A stretch of DNA of 64,000 nucleotides from an uncultured Gemmatimonadales bacterium (GCA_963728705.1 CAVSLY010000021.1:77887-141886), one strand, 5' to 3'; positions 32,365 to 62,185 are shown, numbered from the stretch's first letter. The notes: generated from the letters alone by a model not told the origin. Numbers and translations are program-made.

Positions 32365-32446
32365 AACCCGCCCCACTCAGTCGCATAGCGACCCCCCTGT
32401 AGGATCGGCGTCTTGACCCATCCACCCTTTGCTCTGGAGTGCCTCG

Positions 32447-33007: not shown

Positions 33008-33012
33008 CCTGA

Positions 33013-33609
33013 ATGCGCGCTCGAACCGGCAAGCGGGTTCGTCTCTGTCTCGGCCTCCTCGTACCGGGCGCCGCAGTGGCGTTCGGTGCGGGGGAGGCAG
33101 GGGCGCAGGCCGGCACCGGGTCGCCAGCGCGGATCATCGCACTCGCGGCGACGAAGACGTCGCAGCTCAGCGTGGTCGTCGGGTCGGGGGCAGTGCAGAC
33201 CATCGCGGCCCTGACCGACAACGCCGTGAACAATTTCCCCGCCCCGGTGGTCATTACGACCTCGTGGGACGTGAATCCGGGGCAGACCAACACGGTGAAC
33301 CTGATGGCGTACTTCACGACGCCGGCCCAGGCGCTGGTCGGGCCGGCGACCCAGATCCCGGCCAGCCGAGTGCTGGGCCGGGTGACCACGGGCCTGCCGG
33401 TAGCGTTCACGGCGATCACTCAGAACGCCGTGGGCGGCGTGGGCACGGCGGGCGGGAGCCTCCGGCTCTTCGCCCAGAACATCACGGGCGTCAATAAGGT
33501 GGCGAACCGGACGGACAACCTCAACCTGCAGATCAACTTGACCGGCTTTCCCACGCTGGCGCCGGGGCTCTACAGCGGGACGCTCAACCTAAAGGCCGTG
33601 ACCCAGTAG
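33013..33609 (+). CDS. secreted fimbrial-subunit-like protein, paralog 2
   Basis: It starts 5 nt after paralog 1 and has a signal peptide (..AFGAGEAGAQA). Shared blocks: TSWDVNPGQT, AYFTTPAQALVGPATQIPASRVLG, GGSLRLFAQ, RTDNLNLQINLTGFP..GLYSGTLNLKAVTQ-stop. Confidence 0.6.
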   Translation: MRARTGKRVRLCLGLLVPGAAVAFGAGEAGAQAGTGSPARIIALAATKTSQLSVVVGSGAVQTIAALTDNAVNNFPAPVVITTSWDVNPGQTNTVNLMAYFTTPAQALVGPATQIPASRVLGRVTTGLPVAFTAITQNAVGGVGTAGGSLRLFAQNITGVNKVANRTDNLNLQINLTGFPTLAPGLYSGTLNLKAVTQ

Positions 33610-33722
33610 TCCGATAGTTTACCCCAGACCGAGGTGACATCCCGACCCGACCGATAGCCTGAGGAACCTGGCACGTGGCAGCCCGTGATGGCGACCGCCC
33701 GATTCTGGCCGTAAGTTCGGGC

Positions 33723-34295
33723 ATGTTCACTCGATGCGCTGCCCTGGCCGCGCTGGCCCTCTGGCCGGCACCGCTCGGAGCCCAGATCGGGCTCGCGTCC
33801 GCCACCGCGGCGATTGCTTTGTCGGCCACCAAGGTCGCGTCGGTGAGCGTCTCGCTTCCCGGCGGCAACTCCGCCTCCCTCCCAGGCGCCCTCGTCACCG
33901 GGCCGAACGATTTCACCCCCCTTGCCGTCGCTACGTCGTGGGATGTCGATCCGGCCCGCACTGCGGCAGTGTCCCTGGTGGCGTACTTCGACCAGCCCGC
34001 GCGGGCGCTCGTCGGCCCGCAAGCGGCAATCCCTTCGGCGTCGGTGTTCGGACGAGTCCCGACTGGCGGCCCCAAGAGCTTCGCGCCGTTCACGGGCGCG
34101 GCGGTCATGGCAGGCCCTGCGATGGCCGGCACGGCCGGCGGTACGCTGGTGCTCTTTACGCAGACGATCTCCGACGCCAACGCCCTGGGCGGCCGGAGCG
34201 ACGACTTGCAGGTGAGGATCGACCTGACCGGCGCGCCCGAACTGCCGGCCGGGAGTTACACGGGGACTCTCAACCTGCTGGTGATCACGCAATGA
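33723..34295 (+). CDS. secreted fimbrial-subunit-like protein, paralog 3
   Basis: The start is taken at MFTRCAALAALALWPAPLGAQ; the track ORF starts at 33675. Shared blocks: TSWDVDPART, AYFDQPARALVGPQAAIPSASVFG, GGTLVLFTQ, RSDDLQVRIDLTGAP..GSYTGTLNLLVITQ-stop. Confidence 0.6.
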   Translation: MFTRCAALAALALWPAPLGAQIGLASATAAIALSATKVASVSVSLPGGNSASLPGALVTGPNDFTPLAVATSWDVDPARTAAVSLVAYFDQPARALVGPQAAIPSASVFGRVPTGGPKSFAPFTGAAVMAGPAMAGTAGGTLVLFTQTISDANALGGRSDDLQVRIDLTGAPELPAGSYTGTLNLLVITQ

Positions 34296-34301
34296 GGCCC
34301 T

Positions 34302-35051
34302 ATGCGCGCGTCCCAGATCGACAACATTCATCTCCGGCGGTCGGTCCGCCGCGCTAGCCTCGCAGTCGGCGCCTTCGCCTGCCTTGCCGCCCCGCGCGCG
34401 CTGTCCGCTCAGACCGTCAGTCCCCCCATCGCCGAATATCAGGAACGCGCCCGCTCGAGCTTCCAGCTCATCAACTCGACCATCTTCCCGCTGAGCGTCG
34501 TCCTCGAAGTGCACGGATTCAACGTCACCGAGCAGGGCGAAGTGCAGGAAGTCCCGCTCGACAGCGCCAAGGTGCGCGTGAAGCTGTCGGCCATGAGCTT
34601 TCGCATCCCGCCGCGCCAGACCTACACCGTGTTCTACGAAGCGACGGCCGACAGCGTCCCCGCATGGTTCAACATCGTGAGCGCCATGACCGGCGCCAAG
34701 ACCGAGAGCGGCCTCAACGTCCGGATCCTGCTGCCGCACGTGGTGTACCTCAACCAGAAGGAGTCGCTCAAGAAGGAGCAGGTGGCCCTGCGCGCGTTCG
34801 AGATGGATACGGCAACCGGGAAGCTTCGCCTCCAGCTCGAGAACCTTGGTCCCAACCTCGGCCGGGTGCAGCAGGTGTCCGTCACGGCGGGGAAGACCAC
34901 CAGTGTGCCAGGCGCGGGATTCCCCCTGTTCCCCCACATGCTCCGCTGGACCGAGGTGGATTGGCCGAAGGGCCTCACGCCCGAGCGGCTGACGGTCCGT
35001 TTCGCGCGCTTCAGCATGGACACGGTGCTGGCCGCGCCGCCGTCGCCCTAG
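34302..35051 (+). CDS. periplasmic chaperone-like protein (two beta-rich lobes), family not recognised
   Basis: It starts 6 nt after paralog 3 and has a signal peptide (..CLAAPRALSAQ). Two segments are reminiscent of PapD-like lobes (SSFQLINSTIFPLSVVLEV..FRIPPRQTYTVFY and LRLQLENLGPNLGRVQQVSV). The functional call is an inference. Confidence 0.45.
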   Translation: MRASQIDNIHLRRSVRRASLAVGAFACLAAPRALSAQTVSPPIAEYQERARSSFQLINSTIFPLSVVLEVHGFNVTEQGEVQEVPLDSAKVRVKLSAMSFRIPPRQTYTVFYEATADSVPAWFNIVSAMTGAKTESGLNVRILLPHVVYLNQKESLKKEQVALRAFEMDTATGKLRLQLENLGPNLGRVQQVSVTAGKTTSVPGAGFPLFPHMLRWTEVDWPKGLTPERLTVRFARFSMDTVLAAPPSP

Positions 35052-35054
35052 GCC

Positions 35055-37037
35055 ATGGCCGCCCGCCGGACGCGCACGACCATCGCCTGCGCCGCCGCGA
35101 TCTTCGCAGCGGCGCTCGGCGCGTCCGGGACCGCGGTGGCGCAGACGGTGGTCGAGGTGCAGGGCGGCGGGTCGTCGCTCGTGAACGGCTACGGCGCCAC
35201 CGCGAACTTCTGGCGCAACGGGACGGACGGGTGGGTGGGCCTCGGCTATCTCGACGGGCTCCGCATCGGCGCGTTTCTCCGGACCGCTGTCGGCAAGGAC
35301 ACGGTGCGGCTCGGCAACGATGCGCTGGTGATACGCTTCCCGACCGACCTGTTCAGCGGCGGCTACAACCTCCTCGTGCAAGGCGTGAGCGTCGGCGGCG
35401 GTTCATCCGACCGGTCGTATCTCGCTTTCGCCGGCGCCAGCTCGAGCAGCCTGGCCGCTCCCTCGTTCCAGGCTACCCGCATCGACAAGCCGCTGGGCGC
35501 GCTGTTCGTGCAGCGCCGGATCTCGCCTACGGTGCGGCTCACCGGCAACGTGCTCGTCGCGCGGCGCCAGACGGTGATGCCCGGCGTGCAATGGCAGGCG
35601 ACGCCTGATCTGACAACGGCCCTCGTGGCCGGCACCGGCGCGGGCAGCTTGTACGCGGCCGGGGCGGCGACTCTTCGGCGAGGGCCTCTGGGCATCCAGG
35701 CCATGTACGCCTGGAACCCCGACCGGTTCCGCCGGGCCGATGTCCCTGGCCCGACGCAGACGGAAGCGGAGCGGGAAAACGTCTCGGTGACCTACGACAT
35801 CGGCTCGGCGTTCCAGATCGGCGCCGCCCGGCAGCACTTCCTGCAGGACTCAGCCGACGGGACGGCGCCCGTGCGGGCCACAGGCAACTCGGCCTTCGCC
35901 AGCGGTCGCGTGCACGACTTGCGCATCACAGGAGGGTTGTACGACTCGCGCTCCGAGGGCATCAGCAACTTGAGCTCCTACCTAGCCGTCGGGCGCGAAG
36001 TGACGCGGTGGTTGGACGCGGAGCTGTTCCTCCTGCAAAGCCGGCCGTCCGGTCGCGCGTCGAGCACGACGCCGATCGTGAACCTGCGGTGGCGGGTCTC
36101 GCCCCGCGTGCGGCTGATGCAGCAGATCTCGGTGCACGACCACCGGCCGACCATCCTGTTCGGCGCCAACCTGATCACCGCGCTCGGCGAGTTCGGCGCC
36201 GACTATCAGATCGTCCATCAGCCGTTCCAGCCATTCAAACCGTTCCGAAGCACGCTCAATCTCACCGCGCGACTGCAGCTCGGCCGCTACTCGACGAACC
36301 TGGGCACCTATGTGCGGCCGGATGGCTCGGTCGACTACTCGGCCTCGGGCAGCACGTTTCTCTACATGGGCGCGTTCGGCGGCGTGCAGCCCCAGCAGCT
36401 CGGTCAGAGCCTTGGCCGCTACGTGGTGCGTGGGGTCGTGCGCGACGAGGAAGGGCAGCCGGTCGAGGGCGCGGCCGTGGAGCTGAGCGGCGAGATGGCT
36501 TTCACCAACTCGCGTGGCGAATTCTTCGTTCGGGTGCGGCGGCCACAGCGGTACGCCCTCACGATCCCGCTCGATGACTTCTTGCTGCCCGGCCACTGGG
36601 AGATCGTCACCGCACCCTCCGAGACGATCGCGGAGTCGGAGGATCGTGCGCAGGCAGTCGAGATCATCCTGCGGCGGGTGCGGCCGGCGCCGCCGACGAT
36701 TCCACCGCCCGCGGCGCCCGCCGCGCCTGCGATGCCTGCGGATACCGGGGTGTGGCACAGCGCGGACACCCTCCATCGGGTGAGCACTGCGGCGCCTCCG
36801 GCGGAGTTGCCGAGGCTGGTTGTGCGGTTCCAGACGGGGCGGCCGGCGGTCGAGTGTGCCTCACGGAGGTTGTTGCTGCAGGCGTCGGACGATTCCCTTC
36901 GCGGCGACAACCGGCTGGATGCCCACCTTGGCTGGCATGCTCGCCCTGCCCGGCCCGTCACCCTGAGCGCAGCGAAGGGGACATGCCTCAAGGCATGCCC
37001 CCTTCCCTGCGCTCAGGGTGACTCAGAAAGCGACTGA
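35055..37037 (+). CDS. outer-membrane beta-barrel-like protein with C-terminal carboxypeptidase-regulatory-like domain; 3' end uncertain
   Basis: It starts 3 nt after the previous stop and has a signal peptide (AAALGASGTAVAQ). A long alternating beta-type sequence follows, then YVVRGVVRDEEGQPVEGAAVELSG..FFVRV. The last roughly 110 codons are Pro/Ala/Arg-rich and run through the palindrome at 36957-37022, so the real stop may lie upstream. Confidence 0.5.
   Translation: MAARRTRTTIACAAAIFAAALGASGTAVAQTVVEVQGGGSSLVNGYGATANFWRNGTDGWVGLGYLDGLRIGAFLRTAVGKDTVRLGNDALVIRFPTDLFSGGYNLLVQGVSVGGGSSDRSYLAFAGASSSSLAAPSFQATRIDKPLGALFVQRRISPTVRLTGNVLVARRQTVMPGVQWQATPDLTTALVAGTGAGSLYAAGAATLRRGPLGIQAMYAWNPDRFRRADVPGPTQTEAERENVSVTYDIGSAFQIGAARQHFLQDSADGTAPVRATGNSAFASGRVHDLRITGGLYDSRSEGISNLSSYLAVGREVTRWLDAELFLLQSRPSGRASSTTPIVNLRWRVSPRVRLMQQISVHDHRPTILFGANLITALGEFGADYQIVHQPFQPFKPFRSTLNLTARLQLGRYSTNLGTYVRPDGSVDYSASGSTFLYMGAFGGVQPQQLGQSLGRYVVRGVVRDEEGQPVEGAAVELSGEMAFTNSRGEFFVRVRRPQRYALTIPLDDFLLPGHWEIVTAPSETIAESEDRAQAVEIILRRVRPAPPTIPPPAAPAAPAMPADTGVWHSADTLHRVSTAAPPAELPRLVVRFQTGRPAVECASRRLLLQASDDSLRGDNRLDAHLGWHARPARPVTLSAAKGTCLKACPLPCAQGDSESD
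36957..37022. repeat. 31-bp-arm palindromic (REP-like) element, likely bidirectional terminator
   Basis: The sequence is GTCACCCTGAGCGCAGCGAAGGGGACATGCC-tcaa-GGCATGCCCCCTTCCCTGCGCTCAGGGTGAC. It lies between convergent genes. The core GAAGGGG(A/G)CATGCC recurs at 45044-45089. Confidence 0.8.
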
Positions 37038-38363: not shown

Positions 38364-38437
38364 TCGGGACGGCGGGATTTGAACCCGCGACCCCTGCAAC
38401 CCCATTGCAGTGCGCTACCGGACTGCGCTACGTCCCG
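38364..38437 (-). tRNA. tRNA-Pro (anticodon GGG)
   Basis: The reverse complement is CGGGACGTAGCGCAGTCCGGTAGCGCACTGCAATGGGGTTGCAGGGGTCGCGGGTTCAAATCCCGCCGTCCCGA. It folds by eye as a cloverleaf with anticodon loop ATGGGGT, a GTTCAAATC T-loop and a 7-bp acceptor stem. Confidence 0.9.
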
Positions 38438-47467: not shown

Positions 47468-47482
47468 GCGAAGGGTGCAGAG

Positions 47483-47554
47483 AGCCACAGGTCGGATTTG
47501 AACCGACGACCGCTCGATTACGAATCGAGTGCTCTACCCCTGAGCTACTGTGGC
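47483..47554 (-). tRNA. tRNA-Thr (anticodon CGT)
   Basis: The reverse complement is GCCACAGTAGCTCAGGGGTAGAGCACTCGATTCGTAATCGAGCGGTCGTCGGTTCAAATCCGACCTGTGGCT, with anticodon loop TTCGTAA. Confidence 0.9.
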
Positions 47555-47621: not shown

Positions 47622-47703
47622 TGCCCTGGCGCGGATTCGAACCGCGACGCCTTGCGGCACTACCCCCTCAAGATAGCGTGTCTACCAGTTTCACCACCAG
47701 GGC
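47622..47703 (-). tRNA. tRNA-Leu (anticodon GAG)
   Basis: The reverse complement is GCCCTGGTGGTGAAACTGGTAGACACGCTATCTTGAGGGGGTAGTGCCGCAAGGCGTCGCGGTTCGAATCCGCGCCAGGGCA. It has a long variable arm and anticodon loop TTGAGGG. Confidence 0.9.
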
Positions 47704-47757: not shown

Positions 47758-49692
47758 TCAGAAAAGCGTGACCCTGACCCGGAACGGGCTGTCCTTGATC
47801 TCGGTCCCGTTCAAAGTGATGGACACGCGGTAGTCGTTGTCCGTCGACTGGGGCGTCCACGTGGCGGTGTAGGTGCCGTCACCCGCATCGGTGACCGCCG
47901 GTACCGCGACGACGTCTTGGCCGCGCCGCACGGTGATCGTCACCTGGCTCCCGCCGTGCCCTACCGGATTGCCGGACGCATCGGCGGTGCTGACGGTAAT
48001 GTGGACGGGATTCTCGTTCGGATTGAACAGCCCGACCTCCCTGGGCACGTTCGCGGTCGTGTGGTTCGCATCCGCGGGGCCCGCGGCCACTATGCTCGTG
48101 AACGGCGAACCGGCCACGACCTGTCCCCCAACGGTCACGCTCACCAGATCGGTGCCGGCCTTCGCGGGGGTGTACGCTGCGCGATAGCTGCCACCGCCGA
48201 GATCGTCGACCCCCACGTTGCCGATGCTGTTGGCGCCCGACACGCTCACGGCGATCTGCCCCTTCGCGTCGGACAGTGCGTTGCCGAACTCGTCCTGGAG
48301 CGCAATCGAGATCTCGGTCGCGGTGCTCACGGCGCCGTTCGGGACCGTCACCGACGTCCGCGCCCCGGACGGCGGGCCAGGGGTGACCGTGACGGTCGCG
48401 GACCCGAGCGTGACGCCGCCGGTCGTCGCCGTGACCACGTGAGGCCCCGTGGCCGTCGCGCTCAGCGTCCCTGTGGTCTGCCCGGCGGCATTGGTCGCCC
48501 CTGGCTGCGTCAGCGTCACGCCGCCGCCGGTTGCCGCCAGAGAGACCGACTGGCCGGCGAGCGGATTGTTGCGGCTGTCCCGGACGACGACCGTGATGGT
48601 TGCCGTCGTGCCGCCCGCTGACGCCGCGATGGTGCCGGGCGCCGCGGAGACCGAGCTCTTGTCCGCGCTCGCAGGTCCGGCCGTGGCCGTGGCGCTGAAC
48701 GTCACCGGATTGCCGGAGACACCAGCCGCGTCCACCGTTGCCTGCAGGGTGTTCGGGCCGGCGCTGCTCCCGAGGGTCCAGCTGCCCACCGTGGCGATGC
48801 CGTCCGTGCCGGTCGCCGCGGTCGCCGCGGTGACACTGCCGCCGCCGCCCGTCACGGCGAACGTCACCGCGACGCTGGCCACGGGCGTGCCGCCGGCATC
48901 GCGCACGATGACCGCCGGCCGCACCGGCACCGCGGTGCCGGCCGGCACAGTCTGACCCGTTCCCGCGGCCGCGGCCACCGCCGCCGGCGCTCCGACGCCG
49001 ATCGAGATGGGCGTGCTCGTGGCCGAGGCATAGCCAGACGCGGCGAAAATGAGCGTCCGGGCGCCGGGGGCCCCGGCGATCGCCAGGTCGGTGAACGCCA
49101 CGTTGCCGCTGGCGTCAGTGGCTTGAGTGGTGGTGCCGGTAAGGCTTCCGGGTCCCGAGGCGATCTGAACGCTCACCGTGACGCCTTCCCGGGCGAGCGG
49201 TGTGCCGCTGGGATCCTGGAGCTGGAGCACGGGCTGTGGATCGAGGAGCACCCCGGACGAGGCCGTGCTGGGCGGCTCGGTCGTCAGCGCCAGCTTGGCA
49301 GCCACCGCGGTTGTCGTGAACGTCACCGCGTCTTCCGGCAGCGCCGCGGCCACCGCGGTCGTCGCGTAGCTGCCGGGCTCGGCTCCAAGGATGCGTTGCG
49401 TGGCGGCCATGCCGTTGACCCCGGTGACTGACGTGGTCGGCCGCACCTCGCCCCCGTCCCCGGCCGACCACGATATCTCGATACCGGGCACTGGGTTACC
49501 GAACCGGTCCGTGACCTTCACCACCAGCGAATCCGCCAGCGGCTCCAGGATCGTCCCCGTCTGCGAGTTGCCCGAGATGCCCTCGACCTGAGCCGGCTGG
49601 CCCTCGTTGGGCAGCACGAGGTCGCCCCCGCCACAGGCCCCGAGGACCAACAGCGCGATGGATACGACCACCGAACGGCGGAACAGGTGCAT
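47758..49692 (-). CDS. Ig-like (Big-type) repeat lipoprotein with C-terminal filamin-type repeats
   Basis: Intact 644 aa. The lipobox plus motif reads LLVLGACGGGDLVLPNEG. Repeated modules of about 90 aa follow (..VKVTDRFGNPVPGIEISW..). The C-terminus reads GGGSYRAAYTPAKAGTDLVSVTVGGQVVAGSPF and GDGTYTATWTPQSTDNDYRVSITLNGTEIKDSPFRVRV. Confidence 0.8.
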   Translation of the reverse strand: MHLFRRSVVVSIALLVLGACGGGDLVLPNEGQPAQVEGISGNSQTGTILEPLADSLVVKVTDRFGNPVPGIEISWSAGDGGEVRPTTSVTGVNGMAATQRILGAEPGSYATTAVAAALPEDAVTFTTTAVAAKLALTTEPPSTASSGVLLDPQPVLQLQDPSGTPLAREGVTVSVQIASGPGSLTGTTTQATDASGNVAFTDLAIAGAPGARTLIFAASGYASATSTPISIGVGAPAAVAAAAGTGQTVPAGTAVPVRPAVIVRDAGGTPVASVAVTFAVTGGGGSVTAATAATGTDGIATVGSWTLGSSAGPNTLQATVDAAGVSGNPVTFSATATAGPASADKSSVSAAPGTIAASAGGTTATITVVVRDSRNNPLAGQSVSLAATGGGVTLTQPGATNAAGQTTGTLSATATGPHVVTATTGGVTLGSATVTVTPGPPSGARTSVTVPNGAVSTATEISIALQDEFGNALSDAKGQIAVSVSGANSIGNVGVDDLGGGSYRAAYTPAKAGTDLVSVTVGGQVVAGSPFTSIVAAGPADANHTTANVPREVGLFNPNENPVHITVSTADASGNPVGHGGSQVTITVRRGQDVVAVPAVTDAGDGTYTATWTPQSTDNDYRVSITLNGTEIKDSPFRVRVTLF

Positions 49693-49914
49693 GAGAGCAC
49701 CGGAGCTGGAAGTATGGACGATGAGTCTGACCGGGATCTAGAGGTTAGCGCAGGGTCGCCGAGTGCGAAAGGACCGGGATCACACGTGACCCGGCGCCCG
49801 GGCCGGCGGACCAGCGGACGGACCGCGAAATCGGCATGGAGGTGTGCCGCAACGCCATATTTCTGAACTGCTTAGCTCGGATTCTCCGGCTGAATCAACG
49901 TCGGGGCTCGAGGC

Positions 49915-52105
49915 CTACCGTAGCTCGATCGAAACCGAGGTCACTGGGGTGAAGCCGTCGGCGCTGAACCGGATGGTGTAGTCGCCCTTGGGACCGTCGA
50001 TGGCGAGGTCGTGGAACTTCGCCCGACCCTTGTCGTCCGTCGCTATCGCGACCGGCCCCGTGAGCGAGCCCGAACCCGTGAGGAGCGAAGCGGTCACGGT
50101 GACGCCCGAGTGCTCGAGCGGTTTCCCGTCCGCCTTCAGCAACTGCACCTCGGGCTGGTGCCCAAAGGGATCGCCGGAGTGCGCAGTCGAGGACGGCTGC
50201 CTCCGAAGCGACAGCGACGGGACAGCGACGGCGTGAGGCTCGGTATCCAAGCTGCCGGCGAAGCCTTCCGACCCGGCGTAGACCGCAGTCAGGGTCTGAC
50301 TCCCCTCGGTCAGCGGGGTCAGATCGCAGGCTCCCTGGGCCACAGTCGCGGTGCACGAGCCCCCGCCGCTGGCCGTCACCGTCACCGTGCCAGCCGGAAC
50401 GCCGGTCGCCGCGGTGACGTCGAAGCGAACGGTCACCGCTTGGCCGACCGCGGACGGGTCGGGATCATCGGCGGTGATCGACGTGGTCGTCGCCGTCTGC
50501 GGTGGCGCGTTCACCACGTGACCCGTGCTGGCGCTGCTGGGCTCGAACTCCGTGGCTCCCGAATACGCCGCCGTCAGTGTCCGGGTTCCCACGCCCGTCG
50601 GCGCCAGAGTGCACGCGCCGTCGGCCACACTCGCCTCGCAGGTGGTGCCGTCATCGGCGCTCACGCGCACCGTGCCGGTCGGCGTCCCGCCGGGCGAGCG
50701 GACCTCGAAGCGCACGCGGACCGGCACCCCCGGCGCCGACGGGTCCGGATCGTCGGCGAGGATGACGACGGTTGTTCCGGCCCTGGAGAGCTGGATCGAG
50801 CCCGAGCTCACTCCGGTGTACCCCGTCGCCGTGAAGGCGAGGACGTATGCGCCGGGAGGCCCTTCGATCGCGAGGTCGTCGAACTCGACACGGCCGTCGC
50901 TGCCGGTGGACCTGGTGGTGGTGCCTCGCAGAGTGCCCCCGCCAGCCAGCGACACGTTGACAGCCACGCCGGCCACCCGACGCGCGCCGCCGCCAGGATC
51001 GCGGAGCTGGATCGTCGGCCGACGGCCGAACGGGACGCCGCGCTTTGCCGTCTCGGGCGGCTCGGTCACCAGCGAGAGCGTGGGCGGTACCCCCGGATTC
51101 CCGGTGGCGGTGAAGCCGACCGTGCCGACGCCGGATACGACTGCCGTGGCGGTGTTGGCCCCGGGCGTGGCGCCGAGGGTCCAGCGGGTCGAGGCCCGGC
51201 CCTGCGCATCCGTCCGGCCGGTCTCTGGCGCCAGGCTCCCGCCTCCATTGCCGATCACCCAGGTGACGGCGAGATCAGCGACCGGATTGCCGGACCCGTC
51301 CTTCGCCCGCACCACCAGGGGCTCGCGCACGGACGTACCGGCCAGGGCCGACTGCCCGTCGCCGGAGACGCGCTCCAGCACCGTGGCGGATCCGGACGTC
51401 GCGTTGTGTGTGAACGTCACGGGCGAGCCGGCCAGATCGGCCGCGCTGGCGGTGGCGTGCTGCACCCCCGCGGCGGCACCCAGGGTCCGTTCAGCGGAGA
51501 CGAGACCATCAGCCCCGGTTACCGTGGCCGACGGTGTGACGCTACCGGCGTCCGCAGCCCAGGCGATCTCCACGCCGGAGATCGGATTGCCGAAGGCATC
51601 GGTCACCTGGACCACCAGCGGGCTGGGAAGCGCACCGCCGGCCGGCGCCGACTGGTTGTCGCCGGCGACCGCCGACCAACTGGTTGGCGTCAGACGATAC
51701 GGCGTCGAACCGGAGTGGCGCGAACAGCACTCGCTCGCCGTCGGCGATCGCCACCCGCACCTCGGCCGCTGCCCCTCCAACGTGGGTGCCGAGCACGATC
51801 CGAAACGCGACCTGACCTTCGCCATCGGTCTCGGCGGTGTCGGGCGCGACCGTGGCGCCGCTCGGGTCGCCGGTGAATGCGAAGGCGACGCGCACGCCGC
51901 TGACGGGCCGGCCCTGGGAGTCGGTCACCCGGGCGACCACCGGCTGAGCCAGCACCAGGCCGACACGCCCGCTCTGCTCGTCACCCTGGACGATTTCGAT
52001 GGCCGCGGGCTCGCCGTCGCCAGGCAGCACAAGGTCGGCGCCGCCGCAGCCCACGAGCAGGAACGCGACCTGAACAAGGCGGAGAGCGTGCCTGACTGTG
52101 AACAC
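49915..52105 (-). CDS. Ig-like repeat lipoprotein, one frameshift near 51.7 kb
   Basis: The N-terminus is in ORF 51542..52105 (VAFLLVGCGGADLVLPGDGEPAAIEIVQGDEQSG..VTDSQGRPVSGVRVAF). The remainder is in ORF 49915..51825 (AGDNQSAPAGGALPSPLVVQVTDAFGNPISGVEIAW.., and Cys-pair modules TCEASVADGACTL, SCTATVAQGACDL). Confidence 0.8.
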
Positions 52106-52207
52106 AGGGCTCGGCGATGGAAGTGCGAACGCGAGGTGCGAGGATCGGCCAAGAAAATACGGACGGCGCCAGCGCGCCGTCCGTGAAGTGGGTCACCAGC
52201 CGAGGCT

Positions 52208-55200
52208 CAGTTGATCGTGATGGTGAACGTCTGCTCCTCGCTGGCGTCGACGCCACCGTTCGACGTCCCGCCGTTGTCCTCGACATGGACGGTCACGGTC
52301 GCAGGACGCCGGCAAGATGCTCGGGGTGAAGCTCAGGGTGCCGTCAGGGGAGATGCTGGGCGGCGAGATGAAGTGCAGCGAGGTCCAGGAGACCTACACT
52401 TGCGGAGTAGGTCAGCGCCTGGGCGCTTTCATTTGCGGGGCCGGCGCTGCCCGGTCGCCCACGCCTGGCTGTACGCACCGCTGCCAGCGTTCACCGAGAC
52501 GTCTCCGCCGGAGACGAAGCTGGGCGCGTCGTTGACCGCGTCGACCGTGATCGTCACCGTGACGGTGCCCGAGCTGAGCGTCCCGTCGGTGGCGTGGTAG
52601 GTGAAGCTGTCCTCGCCGTTGAAGTCGGGCTCCGGCACGTAGGTGAACGAGCCGTCGCCATTCAGATCGAACGTCTGCGCGTGGGACGGGCCAGTCCCGA
52701 GGACCGCCGTCAGCGCGTCGTTGTCCGGATCGTCGTCGTTCGCCAGCACGCCGGTGCCGGCGGCCGGCGTGAGCGAGCCATCCTCTCCGACATTGTAGCC
52801 GTCGGCCACGGCCGTCGGCGCGCTGTTGCCCCCCTCGACCACCTGCGTGATGGCCGCCGAGGTGCTCGTCTTGAAGGTCGTCGAGCCCTGATAGGTGGCG
52901 GTGATGGAGTGACTGCCCACAGTCAGGTTGTCCACTTGGATCGAGGCGTTTCCCGATCCGCCCACGTTGTCCTGCCCGATTTGGGTGGCCCCATCGAAGA
53001 AGCGCACCTGGCCGCTGGGATTTCCGGTGCCCGAGGTCGCCGTGACATGCGCCGTGAAGGTGACGTTGTCGCCGGACGTGGAGGGGCTGCCGGAGGAGGA
53101 CACCGTCGTGCTGGTCTCGCCCTGCACCGTGTGCCGCTCGTTGTCGTTCGAGGCGTTGAAGTTGGCGTCGCCCGGGTAGCTCGCCGCGATGGTCGGCGTG
53201 CCGTTGGCGGTGAATACCAGGTCGCAGCTACCGGTGCCGAAGGTCGCGGGCGCCGTGCAGCCGGCCGAGCCGCTCGCGGTCACGGTTACGGTCCCGGTCG
53301 GCGTGCCGCCGCCGGCTCCGGTGGCCGCCAGGGTCCACTGCACCGTGACGGTCTCGCCGATGACGGACGGCTCGGGCTGATCGCTCGACACGATGAGCGA
53401 GGTGTTCGCCTTGTTCACCGTGTGCGACGTGGATCCGGAGATCGACGACTCGAAGTTGACGTCACCGGAGTACGTCGCGGTGACGTTCCGGGTGCCGGGC
53501 GAGGAGAACGGGATGGAGCAACTGCCGATGCCGGAGCCCGAGTTGATCGCCCCGACGCAGCTTTCCGTCCCGTCCGTGACCGTGACGGTGCCGGTCAGCG
53601 TACCCGCCCCCGGCGCCACGATGTTGACGTCGTAGTTGAACACCACCGACTGCCCGACCACCGAGCTGCCCGACGGCGACTTCGAGGTGATCGTGGTCGT
53701 CGTGCTCGCCTTGGCCACGTCGAACGCCACGCTCGTCTGGCTGCTTATTCCCGACGACAGGGCGGTGAGGGTGTAGTTCCCTGCCTTGTTGATGGCAAGA
53801 TTCGAGAACGTGGCCGTACCGAAGAATGGTGTTACCGTCGCCGTGCCGGAGAGGGTGCCGGTGACGGATGACGTCAGCGTGATCGGACTGAAGGCCGTCA
53901 GCACCGGATTGCCACCCGCGTCCTGCACCTGCACCTGGAGGGACGGCGAGAACTTCTCGCCGACCACGCGGTCCGTCGGCTCCGTGAGGAACACGAGGTG
54001 GTTGGCCGAACCGGCCAGGATGTCGAAGGCAGGGCTGGTGGCGTCGGTCAAGCCGGTGGAGACCGCGGTCAGGGTGTACCCGCTCCCGGCCTTGTCAATC
54101 GAGAGAGTCGAGAAGACGGCCACACCGTTGACGGCGCTCACCGTCGTGGTGCCCGAAAGCGTGCCGGCCCCCGGGTTCGCCCCGATGGCGAGGGTGACCT
54201 GGCCGGTGGCCGAGGTGACGGTGTTGCCGCTCGCATCCTGGATGGCCACACGCACGGTGGGCATCTGGCTGCCCGCGCTGGTGGTCACCGGCGCCTGCGT
54301 GAAGGCCAGCTTCGTGGCCGCCCCCGCCTCGGCCGTCGCGGTGAACGGCACCGACGGCACGCCCGAGAACACCGCATTGATCAGGTTGGAACCGGCGTTC
54401 GGCCCCAGGGTCCATCGCGTCCAGGCGAAGCCCGTTGGGATTGGTGGTGGTGGTGGCCGGGCTCGGCGAGCCGCCGCCCGTGCCGACCACCCAGCTGATC
54501 GCCTTGCCGCCGACGCCGTTGCCGTTGTCGTCCACCAGGCGGACGACCAGGGAGTCGGCGAGCTGTGCGCCCACGGCGCCGGTCTGCGTGTTGCCCGACA
54601 CCAGGACGAGCGAGGTCGGATTCGCCGGCTCGGCCGTCTGCGTGAAGGTGACCGAGGCGAGCCCGACCGAAGAGGCCTGCGCCGTTTGCGGCCCCGAGGC
54701 ATTGCCGAGCACGCGCTCCGCCGCGGCCGTGCCGTCGGCGCCGCTCGATACGCTGGCCGGGCTGATGGACCCGCCGCCGACCACCGCCCACTGTACCTCG
54801 ACCCCCGCGACCGGATTGCCCAGATCGTCCGTCACCCGGACCACGAGCGAGTCGGCGAGGGCCGAGCCGACGGCCGCGACCTGGTTGTTGCCGCTCACCA
54901 GCTCGAGCAGCGCACCGACACCCGAGACCGCGGAGGCACTGAAGTTCACGAGCAGGTCGTCGCCGCTCACCTGGGCTTTGACCCGCTGCTGGCCGGCCGT
55001 GGTGCCAAGCGTCCAGGTCGCGGACGCCGTACCGTCATCTCCGGTCTGGACGCTGGCCGGCGACACCTGGCCGCCGCCCGCATCGATCGCAAAGACGACC
55101 GCCTGCCCCGCGACCGGGCGATCGAGCCCATCGGTCACCTTGACCACGATCGGCTTGGCGAGCGTCGCGCCAGCGGGTGCCGACTGCTCATCGCCGTCCA

Positions 55201-55314
55201 CGATGGCGATCTTCGCGGGCCGCGATTCGTTGGGCAGGACGATGCCATCCCCGCCGCAGGCGGCGAGCATGGTGGACAGACCGAACGCGATCAGGGACGC
55301 GTAACGTCGCCGTG
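52208..55314 (-). CDS. large Ig-like / cadherin-like repeat lipoprotein (about 1030 aa), two frameshifts
   Basis: A candidate TTG start is at 55314 (TSTRRRYASLIAFGLSTMLAACGGDGIVLPNES). Multiple Big-type modules follow, then Cys-pair modules (SCVGAINSGSGIGSC, GCTAPATFGTGSC). A cadherin-like segment reads NSAPTAVADGYNVGEDGSL..VLANDDDPDNDALTAVL..DAVNDAPSF. The end reads ..EEQTFTITIN-stop at 52208. The shifts are near 54.44 kb and 52.44 kb. Confidence 0.75.
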
Positions 55315-55489
55315 TCGAGGTCAATGTGTGCCGAGTCGTTGGTTGAGGAGTGTCCGCGCCGTCATCCTGATTGAGAGCAGGATACGTGCCTGGGGGGGAG
55401 GGGGGCCAGGGGAGGCAACCCCATGACACGCCCACAGATCACTTGTTGGTCGCCGACTGGGTGTGGCGTAGTCGCAACAACAGCTTGGA

Positions 55490-56215
55490 TCAGAACAGGA
55501 CCGTGGCCGTGAAGGTCACAGGGGAACCGTCCGCATGCTCGACTTTGGCCGTGGCCCGCTGCACGCCGACCCGGTTTCCCAACGTCCAGGTGACGCTGGT
55601 CGTGCCGTCGGATCCCGTAAGGGTGGCTTCGGCGCTCACGTCGCCGCTGCCGGACGCCGTTTCCCACCGTACCTCGGCTCCGGCCACGGGGTTGCCGAAC
55701 CGATCCACGGCCATGACGACCAGGGGCTCCGGCAGCGGCTCGCGCCGGTTCCCGGGCTGGATGGCCTGGCTGACAGCGCGGACGGTGTCGGGGGCGCCGG
55801 GATCTGCTGTGGCCTGCAGGGGGGCAATCGGGAGCGCGGACTCGCCGTCGGGCACCAGGCGTGCCTCGGCCGTATAGACGCCGACGGCCGTGCCAAGCAC
55901 CCAGCGGGCCTCCGCCTGCCCTTGGGCGTTGGTCATGGCGGTATCGGGATCGAAGCCGGCACCGGCGCCTTGGGCCACCACAAAGGCCACTTTCCGGCCA
56001 GGCAAGAGCCTGACCAGCATCGGTCTTGACCTCGACGACGACCGGGGCAGGCAACTCTTCCCCGACGGTCCCCACCTGGCCGTCGCCATTCACCACCGCC
56101 ATCGCGAGCCGCGGGGCGTAGTCGATCCGGGCAGGGTGAGGTCCCCACTGCAGCCCAATAGGACCAGCAAGACAGCGGGCCCGGGTACCTGCCACAACGC
56201 TGCAATTCTTTTCAT
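55490..56215 (-). CDS. short Ig-like lipoprotein (about 240 aa), frameshifted near its 5' end
   Basis: The ATG at 56215 begins MKRIAALWQVPGPAVLLVLLGCSGDLTLPG. Two Big-type modules follow (VNGDGQVGTVGEELPAPVVVEVKTD.., VVMAVDRFGNPVAGAEVRWE..VTFTATVLF-stop). Confidence 0.7.
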
Positions 56216-56261
56216 AGCATCACCTTCGGGGACTGGGTCCAGTCCCATCTAGGATACGTCC

Positions 56262-56864
56262 TCAGCGTCCGGACTGGAAGAGGACGCCGATGCCGAAGTT
56301 CACGATCCGCTCCCGATACCGGTCGCCGCCCCGGCCGGTGTAACGGTGCTGGATGAGGTCGATCGCCGGGTTCAGGTACAGCCGGCGACCGACCCGGACC
56401 TCCCAGCCCGCGCCCACCAGGCCCGCAAAGCCGGTATCGCCAAGGCCGAAGCCGTCGTCGAAATCGACCTCGCTCCTGCCGAGTCCGAGGCCGCCCTTGA
56501 GATACAGTCCGGTGAGAGGAGCGGGATAAAATTGCCCGATGAAGAGGAGGCTGGTGAGTGACTCGGTGCGGTCGCCCTGATCGTCGATCCAGCCCTGGAT
56601 CTCGCCGCCGAGGCGAAGGTAGCGGCTCGGCGTCCCGCCGAGGCGGACGGAGATGGTTGGCCGGTAGAGGTCGCCGCTGTATCCGGCGCCATCACGCAGG
56701 TCGAACGCTTCGCCGCCGGCACCCACACCGAGCGCGCCCCAGAAGCCGTGCCGACCGCGGTCGCTGACCTCCACCAGGCCGCGCGGCGCATCCTGCGCGG
56801 CGGCCGCGCCACCGAGGACCAGGATCGCGGCGGCAGCCATGACGCCAGGCCAAATGGTCCGCAT
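56262..56864 (-). CDS. small outer-membrane beta-barrel protein (about 200 aa)
   Basis: The ATG at 56864 begins MRTIWPGVMAAAAILVLGGAAAAQD. The sequence is Gly/aromatic-rich and alternating. The C-terminus reads IVNFGIGVLFQSGR-stop. It is the first gene of the Ig-like lipoprotein array. Confidence 0.65.
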   Translation of the reverse strand: MRTIWPGVMAAAAILVLGGAAAAQDAPRGLVEVSDRGRHGFWGALGVGAGGEAFDLRDGAGYSGDLYRPTISVRLGGTPSRYLRLGGEIQGWIDDQGDRTESLTSLLFIGQFYPAPLTGLYLKGGLGLGRSEVDFDDGFGLGDTGFAGLVGAGWEVRVGRRLYLNPAIDLIQHRYTGRGGDRYRERIVNFGIGVLFQSGR

Positions 56865-57030
56865 GTTCCACCTCGCCGTCGTTAAGTTGCGGTCGTCCAG
56901 GAATGTGGTTCTGCCGCGGGGCAAGAGACGGACCGCAGCGGCGCCCTCCGACATCCGATTGCTCCGGCAGCGCTTAGCGGACCGGCTCAGGGCTCCGGCC
57001 GGCCCGCCCCGTCCTCGTCCCCAGACAGCG

Positions 57031-57734
57031 ATGTCACCGACCACTCGCCGCCTCGTGATGGCCCTGCTGCTTGTGACCGCGGCCGGCTTCGCCTGGCTCG
57101 GCCTTTGGCAGCTCAGCCGGTTGCGCGAGCGCCGCGAGGCGAACCTGCACATCGCGGCGGCGCGGGCAGCGCCACCGGCCACGATGCCGCCCGTGCCGGC
57201 GGACGCGGACGGGCTGGCCGAGCGCCGCATCGTGGCGCGCGGTCGGTACGACCATGCCCACGAGATCGTCATCCGGGGCGACGTATTCCAGGGCGTGCCA
57301 GGCGTCCGGATCGTCACTCCGCTGCTGCTGGGCGACGGCGGGCCGGCGGTGCTGGTGGACCGGGGCTTTCTCCCGGCGCCGGACGCGGTCACCGTGGACA
57401 CGCGTGGGTCGGAGGAGCCGGGCGAACGGACGGTGCGCGGTGTCGGGCTACCGGTGCCGGCCGGCCCGGGCGAGCCGATCGAGCACGACGGACGCAGCGA
57501 CATGGCGGCGGCTCGACCTGAGCGCGCTGCGCGCGCGGCTGCCCTATGCGGTGCTGCCGGTGTACATCAAGCAGAGGCCCGGACAGTACGCTGCCCGCGT
57601 TTCCCCGGCGAGCGGACCTGCCGCCGATGGATGATGGGCCGCATCTGAGCTACGCGGTGCAGTGGTTCTTGTTCGCGGGAATGGCGGTGGCGTTCGCGTT
57701 TCTGGTGGTCGGGAGGCGTGGCGGCTCAGGATGA
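57031..57734 (+). CDS. SURF1-family cytochrome oxidase assembly protein, two frameshifts
   Basis: Fragments: MSPTTRRLVMALLLVTAAGFAWLGLWQLSRLRERRE; GVPGVRIVTPLLLGDGGPAVLVDRGFLP; then LPYAVLPVYI and GPHLSYAVQWFLFAGMAVAFAFLV in other frames. Confidence 0.75.
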
Positions 57735-57746
57735 CGTCACGAAACC

Positions 57747-59033
57747 TCAGGTCGCCGGGCGCGGGCCGTCGAGCTCCTCGATCGTGCGCGTGGACGGCTC
57801 GCGCTCACGCTGCAGCCGCGCAGCGGTCCGCTCGGCCTGACGCAGTGCCCGCAAGCAGGTTCTGTCCGGCGAGCTTCTTCAGGTCCGGCGTCGCTCCAGC
57901 CCCGGCGGATGAGCTCGGCGAAAAGATCCGGAAACTTCGACACGTCCTCGAGGCCTACGGGCACGTAGTCGATGCCGTCGAAGTCGCTGCCGATGCCGAC
58001 GTGATCCACGCCCGCCACCTGGCGCACGTGGTCGATGTGATCGGCCACCTGCGCCAGCGTCGCGCTGGGCGACGGGTGGGCCTTCTCCCATGCGTCCATC
58101 TGCCGGTTCCGCTCGGCGCTATCGGGCACGGCCGTCCGGAGCGCCTTGCCGTTCCGACGTCGGCCGAATCCTCCCAGACCTTGAACTCGGCCGAGACGAA
58201 CTGCGGCACGAACGTCACCATGACGACCCCGCCGTTCTTCGGCAGGCGGGCGAGGATGGAGTCGGGGACGTTGCGCGGATGATCCACGAGCGCGCGGGAC
58301 GCCGAGTGCGAGAAGATGACCGGGGCCTCGCTCACGTCGAGCGCCTGGCTCATGACGGCCGGCGAGACGTGCGAGAGGTCGACCAGCATCCCGAGCCGGT
58401 TCATCTCGCGGACGACCTCGCGGCCGAACTGGGTGAGCCCCCGGTGTCGGGCGCTGTCGAGCGCCGCGTCGGCCCAGTCGAGGGTCACGTTGTGGGTGAG
58501 CGTCATGTAGCGGGCGCCGAGCGCGTAGTAGGACCGGAGCACGCCGAGCGAGTTCTCGATGGCGTGCCCGCCCTCCATGCCGAGCAGCGAGGCGAGCCGG
58601 CCGCGCTTCACGCTGCGCTCGATGTCGTCCGCCGTGAGCGCCAGCGCGAGCTTGTCCGGGTAGCGGGCGATCATCCGGCGGGCGATGTCGAACTGCTCGA
58701 GCTGCACCCGCGCGTAGCCGCTGTCCTTCATCTCGCCGTCGATGTAGATCGACCAGAACTGCGCCGCCACCTGTCCCTCCTCGAGCCGCGCGAGATCGGT
58801 GTGCTTGGGCGACGGCTGCGCGGAGGTCATAGGCGGCCACGTCGCGTGGGTGGCCCTCGGCGCGGCGGATCTCCCACGGCAGGTCGTTGTGGCCGTCGAT
58901 GAGCGGCGTCGACCGCAGCAGCGCGCGGGCATGGGCGAGCGCGGCGTCGGGGGCCTGCGCGGCGGCGGGTGCGGTCATCGCCAGTGGAGTGAAGAGGAGT
59001 GAGAGGAGGAAGACGGGTCGGGATGGCGCTCAC
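57747..59033 (-). pseudogene. membrane dipeptidase (peptidase M19), several frameshifts
   Basis: Fragments: [14 protein letters not shown]; QFWSIYI; [33 protein letters not shown]; [27 protein letters not shown]; [11 protein letters not shown]; [12 protein letters not shown]. The start is GTG 59033 (signal peptide partly in another frame) and the stop is TGA at 57747-57749. Confidence 0.8.
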
Positions 59034-59534: not shown

Positions 59535-62185
59535 TTACGGCGGGCCGTCGACCAGTACCGTCACGATCGCCCGGGGGCCGGCGCGGAACGGGATCGAGCG
59601 GCCACCGTCGGCCAATGATGAGCGCCCGGGTGCCCCGCTCGTCGGCGCGAACCAGCTCGGCGCGCGCCGCCGCACGGCCGAGCCGCCAGCGCCCCATCCA
59701 CGGGCTCCGTCCCCGCGTTGTAGCAGCGCAGCACCAGCCCGCCGGAGCGCGACCGCGGCTTGACCGCCGAGAGGACGAGGCCGCTGCCCTCGAGCCGAAC
59801 GTCCAGGCCGGGGCGACCGGAGGGTCGTCGCCTGGCGGAGCCAGAGCGCTCGGGGCGGCAGGAACACGTCCTCCCACAACTCCGGCAGCGCGCTCCCTGC
59901 CTGGAGATCGGCATCGCCAACAGGCACCAGGGCGAGCTGGAAGCGGTCTCCACCGGGACACTGGGCATCGGGCGTCGCGCATGGGCCATCCCGCGTGGCC
60001 AGGGCGGGTGGACAAGATCGCCGCGGGACAGCTGGCCCACGCAGCGGAGGAGGGTCATCCGGAGGTCGCCGTCCTCCGCGAGCTCGTACTCGAAGAACCC
60101 GGGCGCCAGCAGCGCCAGCCCCCGGGGGCCCGAGGCCACGGCGACATAGCGCTGCGCCGGGGCGGTCGTCACGGGAGTCTCGCGCGGATAGCGGGCGCCA
60201 TCCGCGACGGCCGCCTGGCGCGTCACCGGCCCGAACGGCCCGCCGGCCACCGCGGGCATGGCCGGAACCCCGCTCGGGACGCGCAGGCGGAGCCGATGGT
60301 TGGTGGCGCGGTTGTCGAGCTCGGCCGTGCAGCGGAGTGCCGCGCTGTGGGCGTGCAGAGTCAGGAGCAATCGCGCGGCCACCTGGCCGGACCCGCATGC
60401 CAGGGTGCTCCGAACCTCCAGTGTGGCCACCAGCGGCCCGCGCGCCAGCACGCGAACGGACGCCGGGCCACGCACGCGGCGGACGCGGTCACGCGGCGGC
60501 GGTGCATACGTGTAGGTGTCACCGATGTCGCCGGAGGACTCGAGGCCGAGGAGCGCCGGATACAACAGGCCGGTGCGGCGGTCGGCCAGGGTGACGGTAC
60601 CGTCGCGGCCCACGGTGAGCGCGACGAGCCCGTTGTCGAGGCTGCGGGCCCCGGCCCGCACTCCCGGCTCCTGCGGAGCCCGACTCCGATCCACCGGCTC
60701 GAGGACCGCGAAGCCGAGCCCACCCAGTGCCGGAGCGCGAAAGGCGATGCGGGTGACGTCGATCTCGTCCTGATCGGGATAATGGCGCGGGGCGTCGAGG
60801 CGCTCGTGCGCCCGCGCACTGCCGAGCGGTTGGACGCCGAGTGGCCCGTCGGCCCCGGCGAGGGCGACCTCGCGGGCGCCGCCGCCCTCGCGCGGCGCCC
60901 GCGGACCGGGGGGGCCGACGAACACGTCGCGGCGAAACCAGGTCAGGTCCGCCACGACCACGCTCCCCGCCCGCGGGCGCGCCACCGGATTCCAAAGGAC
61001 GAGGCGCGACGCGGTCTGCCTGGGATGGTCTCGCGCGTCGTCGGGATCGTTGCCGATCAGGGCGTCGAGACTCGCGCGGGCGATCTCGCCGGCCGCCAGC
61101 ATCACGTCGTCGAGCCGGCCCGCCACCCGCCGCGCGACCGCGTCCGAGGTGCAGCCGCCGATGGAGTCGTGAAACTGGGACCGCACCAGCGCGCGCCACG
61201 TATCGTCGAGCAGCGGTCGGCGATCGCCGAGTCCCAGGGCTCCGGCGAGCGCGGCGAGCGGCTCGGCCACGCGCTCGAGCCGCAGCTCGGCCTCCGCGTG
61301 CCGGCGCTTCAGCGGTGCGCGGGTGGCGTGCACGCCCTGCAACGTCCAGGTGTAGCCGTAGGACCAGCGGAGCTCGCCGTGCAGCGGGGGAGCGCCATCG
61401 GCCTCGGCGGCCGCCGCGCGGAGAAACTCGTCCAGGCGCGAGACCCGTACGTCGGCCTCCGGCTCGAGCGCCGCGAGCAGCTCGCGCACGCGCCCGATCG
61501 CCACCGGCGCAGCGTGATGGTCCGCTCCAATCGTCACTGCGAGGTGCGGCGTCGCCGCGCGGCTCGCAAGCACCGGGCGGAGCCGCGCCCATTCATCGGC
61601 GAGCCGCGCCGGCTCGGCGACCAGCGCGGATCCGGCCTCATAGCCGTCGGGAGGCAGGTGGTGCAGCAGGATCGCGCGGCCGTCGGGAGCGTACCAGCGA
61701 TAACTGTCGCCCTCCTGGCCCGGTTCGCCCCCGAGCCCCCGCCAGAGCACGCCACCTGCCATGGCGAATTCGGCGGCGAGCGCAGGCCAGATAGCGGGAT
61801 GCCCGAACGCATCCGGAGAGTAGAAGCCGTCCGACCGCCCTCCCAGACGCTCGGCGTCGGTGCGCCCGAGGAGCAGGTTCCGCACGAGGCTCTCGCCCGA
61901 GGGAACGAGCTCGTCGGCCAGAACGTACCAAGGGCCGATCTCCAGCCGGCCGGCGCGGACCAGGTTGGCGACGCGGACACGCTGGTCGGGGCGGACGCGC
62001 AGATAGTCCTCGAGCAGCACGGTCTGGCCATCGAGGAAGAAGCTGCGGAAGTCGGCGTCGGTCTCGAGGCGGGTGAGGAGGTCGTCCAGGGCGGGAACGA
62101 GGCGGGCGACGAAGGTGGCGCGGGGCAGGTACCACTCCCGATCCCAGTGGGTATGTGGGATGAGGTGGATGACCAGGCGGGCCAC
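59535..62185 (-). CDS. GH38-family alpha-mannosidase, intact for about 750 aa then 3 frame changes in the last about 500 nt
   Basis: The N-terminus reads MARLVIHLIPHTHWDREWYLPRATF..FLDGQTVLLEDYL..GRLEIGPWYVLADELVPSGESLVRNLL..YSPDAFGH. The C-terminal pieces (CPGGDRFQLALVP, LDVRLEGSGLVLSAVKP..LVLRCYN, IPFRAGPRAIVTVLV) lie in different frames. Confidence 0.85.

Follow-up and report, generated by a model that had tools for sequence, protein, structure and literature searches.

A probable variable slot of immunoglobulin-repeat lipoprotein genes beside a conserved outer membrane barrel gene in Gemmatimonadales

Introduction

A cluster of five genes reading in the same direction is located on the minus strand, at 47758-56864, of a 64,000-nucleotide stretch of DNA from an uncultured Gemmatimonadales bacterium (GCA_963728705.1, CAVSLY010000021.1:77887-141886; this whole stretch, with a G+C content of ~70%, is called the window). 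Gene A codes for a small beta-barrel of the outer membrane (OM), and genes B to E code for lipoproteins with immunoglobulin (Ig)-like repeats, in each of which the presumably lipidated cysteine is followed by a short motif, here called the tether. A first-pass annotation, made from the sequence alone, had described the five genes and the sizes of the four lipoproteins correctly (Table 1), and had interpreted the barrel as a dedicated partner of the lipoproteins in a surface display or adhesin system. Comparison with public loci of relatives (labelled L001-L180) suggests a different relationship. The barrel is probably an independent OM protein of the genomic backbone, and the array probably represents a variable slot of binding lipoproteins that are likely to be exposed at the cell surface. 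A dedicated barrel-lipoprotein display system is not supported.

The nearest public relatives of the locus belong to metagenome-assembled genomes (MAGs) of uncultured Gemmatimonadales, the DNA identity being 91% for L001, 88% for L002 and 84% for L003. Most of these MAGs originate from the Microflora Danica Nanopore project (PMC12313526). The exact sequence of gene E has no match among public contigs.

Conservation of the locus in related genomes

Forty-five Gemmatimonadales loci, found with an alignment of four barrel sequences, form a close clade in which the barrels are 53-96% identical. A tether lipoprotein gene follows the barrel immediately in all 44 loci that have enough downstream sequence (the misses of the pattern search were resolved individually), its start lying a median of 127 nt past the barrel, and two to five such genes are present within the next 7 kb of each locus. 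The gene directly 3' of the barrel is B-like in 42 of these 44 loci and is replaced by a large tether lipoprotein in L013 and L021. Synteny of the barrel with such arrays, which would be expected of a dedicated system, thus holds throughout the close clade, but it breaks down at four distant loci described below. The upstream dipeptidase gene (Peptidase_M19) is kept in 45 of 45 close-clade loci, and SURF1 precedes the barrel in 44, the one exception being a locus that begins at the barrel itself. SURF1 also precedes the barrel in L171-L180 (in L173 it was identified by sequence) and is the neighbor of the barrel at every locus for which upstream sequence is available. As these two unrelated genes are conserved equally well, the adjacency of barrel and array represents the general synteny of the region and carries little information.

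Distant orthologous loci, in which the barrels are 42-49% identical and which were scanned for tRNAs, make it possible to separate the barrel from the array. The usual order of the backbone is Peptidase_M19, SURF1 (divergent), barrel, slot, tRNA-Leu(GAG) and tRNA-Thr(CGT). In L171, L173 and L177 nothing occupies the slot, tRNA-Leu lying only 35-37 nt past the barrel stop codon, and in L178 the slot contains a Sortilin/BNR gene on the opposite strand and no array. These array-less loci (barrels 42-46% identical) keep SURF1, and two of them keep the dipeptidase. In other distant loci the slot is filled to different extents: L174 has one tether lipoprotein of at least 2165 amino acids, L179 has two lipoproteins, and in L180 and L136 one or more are present up to the point where the sequence breaks off. 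In the window, the two tRNA genes are found directly 3' of gene E, tRNA-Leu followed by tRNA-Thr. The same pair terminates the array in L001, L002, L034 and L048, and tRNA-Leu alone was found in L003. The content of the array differs between close relatives, and gene D is missing from L003, which is otherwise syntenic. Within the array of the window there are no long DNA repeats and no trace of recent duplication.

Tether lipoproteins also exist apart from the barrel. In L069, L076, L079, L097 and L134 they are solitary, with no barrel homolog in the 5-7 kb upstream. The empty slots, the conserved flanks and the barrel-less tether lipoproteins together lead to the interpretation that the barrel belongs to the genomic backbone and the array is cargo that varies between loci. 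The earlier idea of a dedicated small barrel finds no support in either direction, and the barrel is unlikely to be the dedicated partner of the lipoproteins. The two would stand side by side for positional and not for mechanistic reasons, the space between the barrel and the tRNAs being filled by variable paralogous lipoprotein genes. The apparent barrel-lipoprotein "system" would then resolve into ordinary parts, a backbone OM protein beside a variable lipoprotein slot.

Two further observations concern the flanks of the locus. In L173, genes for a phage integrase and for the terminase and portal of a prophage (1249-2432) directly adjoin the conserved tRNA-Thr(CGT) at its 3' end, which makes the tRNA pair an integration hotspot in this clade. 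In L178 (2121-5398) and in L171 and L177 (3001-4319), genes for SCO1/SenC, Caa3_CtaG, CopC, CopD and FUR lie upstream of SURF1 and the barrel, so that the barrel in distant relatives is found at the edge of a respiratory-assembly neighborhood of copper and cytochrome-oxidase assembly genes.

Structure of the barrel

The identification of gene A as a barrel gene coding for 200 residues was correct, its PF13505 match lying exactly at the threshold (28.7 bits against a cut-off of 28.7). Most relatives of the barrel carry a precomputed match to the same family. An AlphaFold2 (AF2) model calculated from an alignment of 47 sequences has a pLDDT of 92.4 and consists of a helix (residues 5-24) followed by a barrel of eight strands; this model was used in place of the prediction from the single sequence, for which the pLDDT was 30. 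The top matches found by Foldseek, all with a probability of 1.00, are the transmembrane domain of OmpA, NspA (target TM-score, TMt, 0.76), Ail and OmpX, and OmpW/OprG is matched as well. A sequence search of the PDB found no relative of the barrel, and NCBIfam contains no informative family for the products of A, B or E. As modeled, the barrel is an ordinary eight-stranded OM protein of the OmpA/NspA/Ail/OmpX fold class. Small eight-stranded OM barrels serve as anchors, adhesins or small hydrophobic channels. As far as is known, they lack a pore for translocation and do not act as protein translocators.

The protein starts with a Sec signal peptide, MRTIWPGVMAAAAILVLGGAAAAQ, which is followed by a single domain of ~176 residues. 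The C-terminus, GIGVLFQSGR, has a Phe at position -5 and no terminal aromatic residue, the family consensus being ..V.FQ... The family comprises 733 clusters at 50% identity and is confined to Gemmatimonadales wherever a source name exists. The mature N-terminus of the window barrel contains a conserved stretch, R-G-L-V-E-V, and this N-terminal segment is presumably periplasmic. In the family as a whole, residues 24-38 (56750-56795) follow the pattern A-Q-x(3-10)-R-G-(L/I)-x-E-V-x(5)-R-x-G-F-W before the first strand. The R-G-(L/I)-V-E-(V/L) motif is kept whether the slot is filled or empty.

Transcription and possible coupling of the barrel and the lipoproteins

Promoters and terminators were predicted by consensus scans. 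The gap between A and B is 46 nt and contains no T-tailed hairpin or terminator, and the gaps between the other array genes are 100-220 nt long. The strong terminator-like hairpin between C and D suggests that the array is not a single transcript. A sigma70-like site is located at 47742-47714, just upstream of tRNA-Leu. None of the public sequencing runs contains more than ~9% of the words of the region, so that the strain itself is represented in none of them, an RNA-only search not having been made.

The barrel and the lipoproteins might nevertheless constitute a functional module, in which the barrel would dock or anchor the tethered lipoproteins at the OM or help in their assembly. The genes of such a module would be co-transcribed from the barrel promoter, and one possibility is that the orphan hydrophobic tether strand D-L-V-L-P pairs with the barrel itself or with the R-G-L-V-E-V segment of the latter. 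Several points weigh in this direction and against an independent barrel. Wherever tether lipoproteins occur at this locus, they start immediately downstream of the barrel and in the same direction (44 of 44 loci, plus L136, L174, L179 and L180), the gap between A and B is short and terminator-free, and short conserved motifs resembling beta-strands are present at the mature N-termini of both presumed partners. As far as the sequence can suggest, A and B may be co-transcribed and some functional coupling may exist. Furthermore, tether lipoproteins may be encoded at other positions in the genomes whose slot is empty. On the other hand, the array-less orthologous loci retain the barrel together with its N-terminal motif, tether lipoproteins are found without a nearby barrel, and conservation of the unrelated dipeptidase and SURF1 genes is as good as that of the adjacency itself. 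The fold class to which the barrel is matched has no lumen for translocation, and the array is divided by the terminator-like hairpin. A functional module is therefore unlikely, and the interpretation of the barrel as an independent backbone protein is preferred.

Domain structure of the lipoproteins

All four lipoproteins have a positively charged n-region, a hydrophobic h-region and a lipobox of the form [LVI][ASTVI][GAS]C, and in all four the lipobox is followed by the motif that the first-pass annotation had noticed (Table 1). The signal sequences end in ...LLVLLGC in B, ...VAFLLVGC in D and ...IALLVLGAC in E. The signal peptide of C, as read from its TTG start, is MTSTRRRYASLIAFGLSTMLAAC.

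Big_1 (PF02369) is recognized in each of the four proteins, with scores of 58 bits in B, 67 in C, 86 in D and 112 in E, the cut-off being 34.9. Beyond this common element the proteins diverge. The product of B has two Big_1 domains. That of C has three, together with unassigned Ig-like modules and three Big_3_5 domains with Cys pairs, and its distal part contains a cadherin-like domain (Big_9/Cadherin_4/5) and a C-terminal Ig-like domain. The product of D has three Big_1 domains, CarboxypepD_reg-like modules and two Big_3_5 domains with Cys pairs. In E, Big_1/Invasin_D3 domains are accompanied by a CarboxypepD_reg-like module and by two C-terminal filamin-type repeats, which match the gelation factor 1wlh of the PDB at 1e-15; the putative invasin 5n40 is also among the PDB matches. 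The different downstream modules of the earlier description (Cys-pair, cadherin-like and filamin-type) are thus recovered as profile matches, with CarboxypepD_reg in addition.

Location of the lipoproteins

By combining these features, it is possible to describe how the lipoproteins might be arranged on the cell. Each lipoprotein would be exported and acylated at the Cys of the lipobox, and the lipid would hold it on the OM. The short tether and the Big_1 stalk would then project the variable distal Ig-like modules (disulfide-paired Big_3_5, cadherin-like and filamin-like) away from the membrane. An Ig domain is roughly 4 nm long. Rods of 6-11 Ig domains, or of ~22 in L174, would thus measure 25-90 nm and exceed the periplasm, so that a location at the cell surface is the most likely one. 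There the distal modules would probably bind external ligands or other cells. The adhesin or surface-display part of the first-pass reading agrees with the domain content and with the predicted rod lengths; it is the dedicated barrel that is not supported. It is plausible that the lipoproteins with this lineage-specific tether are adhesin-like proteins of the surface.

Alternatively, the lipoproteins might face the periplasm, either in the inner leaflet of the OM or in the inner membrane, and function as scaffolds or spacers of the envelope. It is established that OM lipoproteins of most studied diderms have a periplasmic topology by default (PMC5080379), and no known machinery for surface export, such as Slam or the Bacteroidota-type lipoprotein export signal (LES), can be identified here. 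The length of the predicted rods is difficult to reconcile with such a position, since it exceeds the periplasmic width. Moreover, it is extracellular proteins that typically contain Ig modules of the cadherin-like, filamin-like, invasin-type and disulfide-paired kinds, and the differences in array content between close relatives are those expected for exposed proteins. A periplasmic location is quite unlikely on balance, and exposure at the surface remains the favored interpretation.

If surface-exposed, the tethered Ig-repeat lipoproteins probably represent a major variable surface component of the abundant soil Gemmatimonadales. The tether would in that case also provide a handle on the surfacing of lipoproteins outside the Proteobacteria, Bacteroidota and Spirochaetes.

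The N-terminal tether

The four lipoproteins had been thought to share a special N-terminal module. This module is the first Big_1 domain, which is no closer among B to E (36% identity) than it is to the internal repeats (38%), these being 40% identical to one another. The part specific to the N-terminus comprises ~15 residues, from the lipidated Cys to the start of Big_1 as defined by Pfam. The proposed shared adaptor is thus reduced to the short tether.

The consensus of the tether is C-G-G-(x)-D-L-(V/T)-L-P-x-(E/D)-(G/S)-x-P-A. In a logo of 146 non-redundant candidate N-termini from Gemmatimonadales loci, ~140 of which are genuine, the successive positions are occupied by C, G (88%), G/D/S, D (72%), L (84%), V/T/L, L (97%), P, x, E/D, G/S, x, P (58%) and A (56%). 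The tether also stands ahead of domains other than Big_1 in L016, L018, L020, L042 and L110. Extra array members with the tether CGGDLTLP or CGGDLALP occur at 10407 in L016, 14055 in L018, 14073 in L020 and 6283 in L110, and in these the tether leads, through a Pro/Gly-rich linker, to a cadherin-like DDRYS... domain in place of Big_1. Its occurrence before this cadherin-like domain shows the tether to be a portable N-terminal element.

The tether was not found in other lipoproteins of the same DNA, including the Big_2 lipoprotein of L171. An initial scan of all species genomes with a DNA pattern was loose, and most of its 120 matches were due to chance in GC-rich genomes. After filtering by reading frame and signal-peptide context, the matches in a lipoprotein-plus-Ig context all belong to Gemmatimonadales or Gemmatimonadetes. 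Literature searches returned no account of lipoproteins of this sort from Gemmatimonadota, and to our knowledge the tether is a new motif.

The tether is a family-specific element. It could serve as a signal for sorting or export, or as a strand for docking. Its hydrophobic triplet lies at the distance at which the last strand of the preceding domain is found in the internal repeats, but its hydrophobic residues are contiguous, not alternating. We conjecture that the triplet is an orphan strand. A more specific proposal, which is put forward tentatively and is rather doubtful, is that the tether acts as a Gemmatimonadota-specific surface-sorting signal, equivalent to the LES of Bacteroidota, that takes a class of Ig-repeat and some cadherin-like lipoproteins across the OM, or else as an orphan beta-strand that docks them onto an OM partner. 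If either were true, the tether would point to an undescribed route of surface lipoprotein export or anchoring in a poorly studied diderm phylum.

Reading frames of genes B, C and D

GC3 (third-codon-position G+C) periodicity and three-frame translation show that gene E (47758-49692) is the only one of the four lipoprotein genes with an open frame. Gene B contains two frame changes, a +2 insertion at ~56114 and a +1 insertion at ~56000. Gene C contains four +1 insertions (~54431, 52449, 52396 and 52303), and gene D contains one (~51675). The first-pass annotation had treated B, C and D as continuous proteins, reading silently through these seven disruptions.

Alignment with L001-L003 demonstrates that each of the seven changes is an insertion of 1-2 nt private to the window. 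Two sites, 54427 and 56008, were checked in Illumina soil-metagenome contigs of related strains, and the extra base is missing at both. The orthologs in L004 and L005 have uninterrupted open reading frames (ORFs), as do genes C (1049 codons) and E in L003. Frameshifts are present in the Nanopore MAGs L001 and L002 too, at other positions. The damage extends to other genes of the window: the M19 dipeptidase gene (57737-58978, minus strand) and a GH38 alpha-mannosidase-like gene (59561-62185, minus strand) are each split over two frames, which indicates that the indel problem is window-wide and not peculiar to the lipoproteins. As orthologs elsewhere are intact and housekeeping genes of the window are broken in a similar way, the seven frameshifts in B, C and D are read as assembly indel errors and not as biology.

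The number of disruptions, seven within 7 kb, could also indicate that B, C and D are true pseudogenes in an array that is decaying in this strain. It speaks for such decay, and against assembly errors, that the insertions of the window fall outside long homopolymers. However, neither the GC3 periodicity nor the protein similarity weakens across any of the shifts, and the dipeptidase and GH38 genes, which are conserved housekeeping genes, show the same breakage. Every indel is private to the window, the extra base is missing from independent short-read contigs at the two sites, the shifts of L001 and L002 lie at different positions, and L004 and L005 are intact. Decay of the array is thus very improbable, and assembly error is the preferred explanation. 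The practical value of the analysis lies in the corrected annotation, with seven assembly frameshifts and two tRNA boundaries, and in a defined, testable motif.

Comparison with known systems

The lipoproteins are of a known kind, and the components of the locus are real. Their closest analog, in architecture only, is the Lig family of Leptospira (LigA, LigB and LigC), which like B to E have a lipoprotein signal peptide, an acylated N-terminal Cys (predicted for B to E), a long tandem array of moderately diverged Ig-like domains and a distinct C-terminal part. The Lig proteins are surface-exposed binding proteins, with several paralogs per genome (PMC7821625). Their 12-13 tandem domains are of the Big_2 type (PF02368), whereas B to E have no Big_2 match and have a Big_1 stalk instead. 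The G-G-x-D-L-V-L-P tether is not a described feature of Lig, and phylum and habitat differ as well, the present organisms being soil Gemmatimonadales.

Proteins of the intimin/invasin type (type Ve) have passengers with the same Big_1/Invasin_D3 domains and also use an Ig rod to present a distal binding module. They are single polypeptides whose passenger depends on a 12-stranded barrel at the N-terminus for both export and anchoring. The proteins B to E, in contrast, are predicted to be lipid-anchored, with no inverse autotransporter (IAT) barrel domain detected, and the adjoining barrel is a separate protein of eight strands.

In Slam systems, as at this locus, an OM barrel gene is placed next to lipoprotein genes, and Slam substrates have been predicted from such adjacency (PMC5449769). 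Slam itself combines a 14-stranded DUF560 barrel with a periplasmic tetratricopeptide repeat (TPR) domain, and an eight-stranded barrel domain of the TbpB-like type is common to its substrates (PMC5449769). Gene A, in contrast, codes for 200 residues and eight strands, with PF13505 only and no TPR, and B to E contain only Ig-like domains. The Bacteroidota LES resembles the tether in being short, in following the lipidated Cys directly, in being confined to one class of lipoproteins and one phylum, and in including an acidic residue. The LES, which provides the precedent for a sorting motif placed after the Cys, has the form K-(D/E)2 or Q-A-(D/E)2 and was shown to suffice for surface export (PMC5080379). 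The tether, G-G-(x)-D-L-(V/T)-L-P, is instead hydrophobic and ends with Pro, and it contains neither form of the LES.

The transmembrane domain of OmpA, OmpX, Ail, NspA and OmpW/OprG have in common with the product of gene A the fold, the size, the signal peptide and long strands that protrude past the membrane. The latter differs from these solved small barrels in lacking a detectable sequence relationship to them, in its non-aromatic C-terminus (...VLFQSGR) and in its family-specific N-terminal motif (presumably periplasmic).

Features of the locus and neighboring genes

The positions of the array genes and of the features bounding them are given in Table 1. The tRNAs are the sole matches of an Rfam scan, and a third tRNA gene of the window lies at 38364-38437 on the minus strand (~38.4 kb).

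Table 1. Genes and other features of the barrel-lipoprotein locus (window coordinates)
Feature	Position	Strand	Description	Support
Gene A	56262..56864	-	small OM beta-barrel, 200 aa, secreted	PF13505, AF2, Foldseek
Gene B	55490..56215	-	lipoprotein, ~240 aa; lipobox LLGC; tether CSGDLTLP; two Big_1	
Gene C	52207..55324	-	lipoprotein, ~1035 aa; probable TTG start at 55324; lipobox LAAC; tether CGGDGIVLP	
Gene D	49915..52105	-	lipoprotein, 729 aa; GTG start; lipobox LVGC; tether CGGADLVLP	
Gene E	47758..49692	-	lipoprotein, 644 aa; intact frame; lipobox LGAC; tether CGGGDLVLP	
Terminator-like hairpin	52159..52184	-	between C and D; 11-bp stem with 9 G-C pairs, then ATTTTCTT	consensus scan
tRNA-Leu(GAG)	47622..47703	-	conserved downstream boundary of the slot	
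tRNA-Thr(CGT)	47482..47554	-	second conserved boundary tRNA	
SURF1-family gene	57010..57648	+	divergent from barrel	PF02104, E = 4e-24

The histidine kinase/response regulator encoded downstream was considered as a member of the array but excluded, being located on the far side of the tRNAs and in a position that is not conserved in most loci. It is a hybrid sensor, extending from 45341 to ~47400 on the minus strand, with the order receiver, PAS, HisKA, HATPase and receiver, and its position is kept only in L001 and L002. The longest ORF call, starting at 47488, overlaps tRNA-Thr, and the true start is therefore further downstream.

A separate cluster is located at 32417-37034 on the plus strand. 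It begins with three tandem paralogous secreted proteins of ~196-210 residues, which have the C-terminal pattern ...G.Y(T/S)GTLN(V/L).(A/V)(V/I)(V/T)Q, and continues with secreted proteins of 251 and 661 residues. No Pfam family is matched in this cluster, except for a weak CarboxypepD_reg match in the last protein, and its assignment to a spore-coat-U/chaperone-usher system was discarded, having no Pfam support. The cluster may represent an uncharacterized surface-fiber or assembly cluster.

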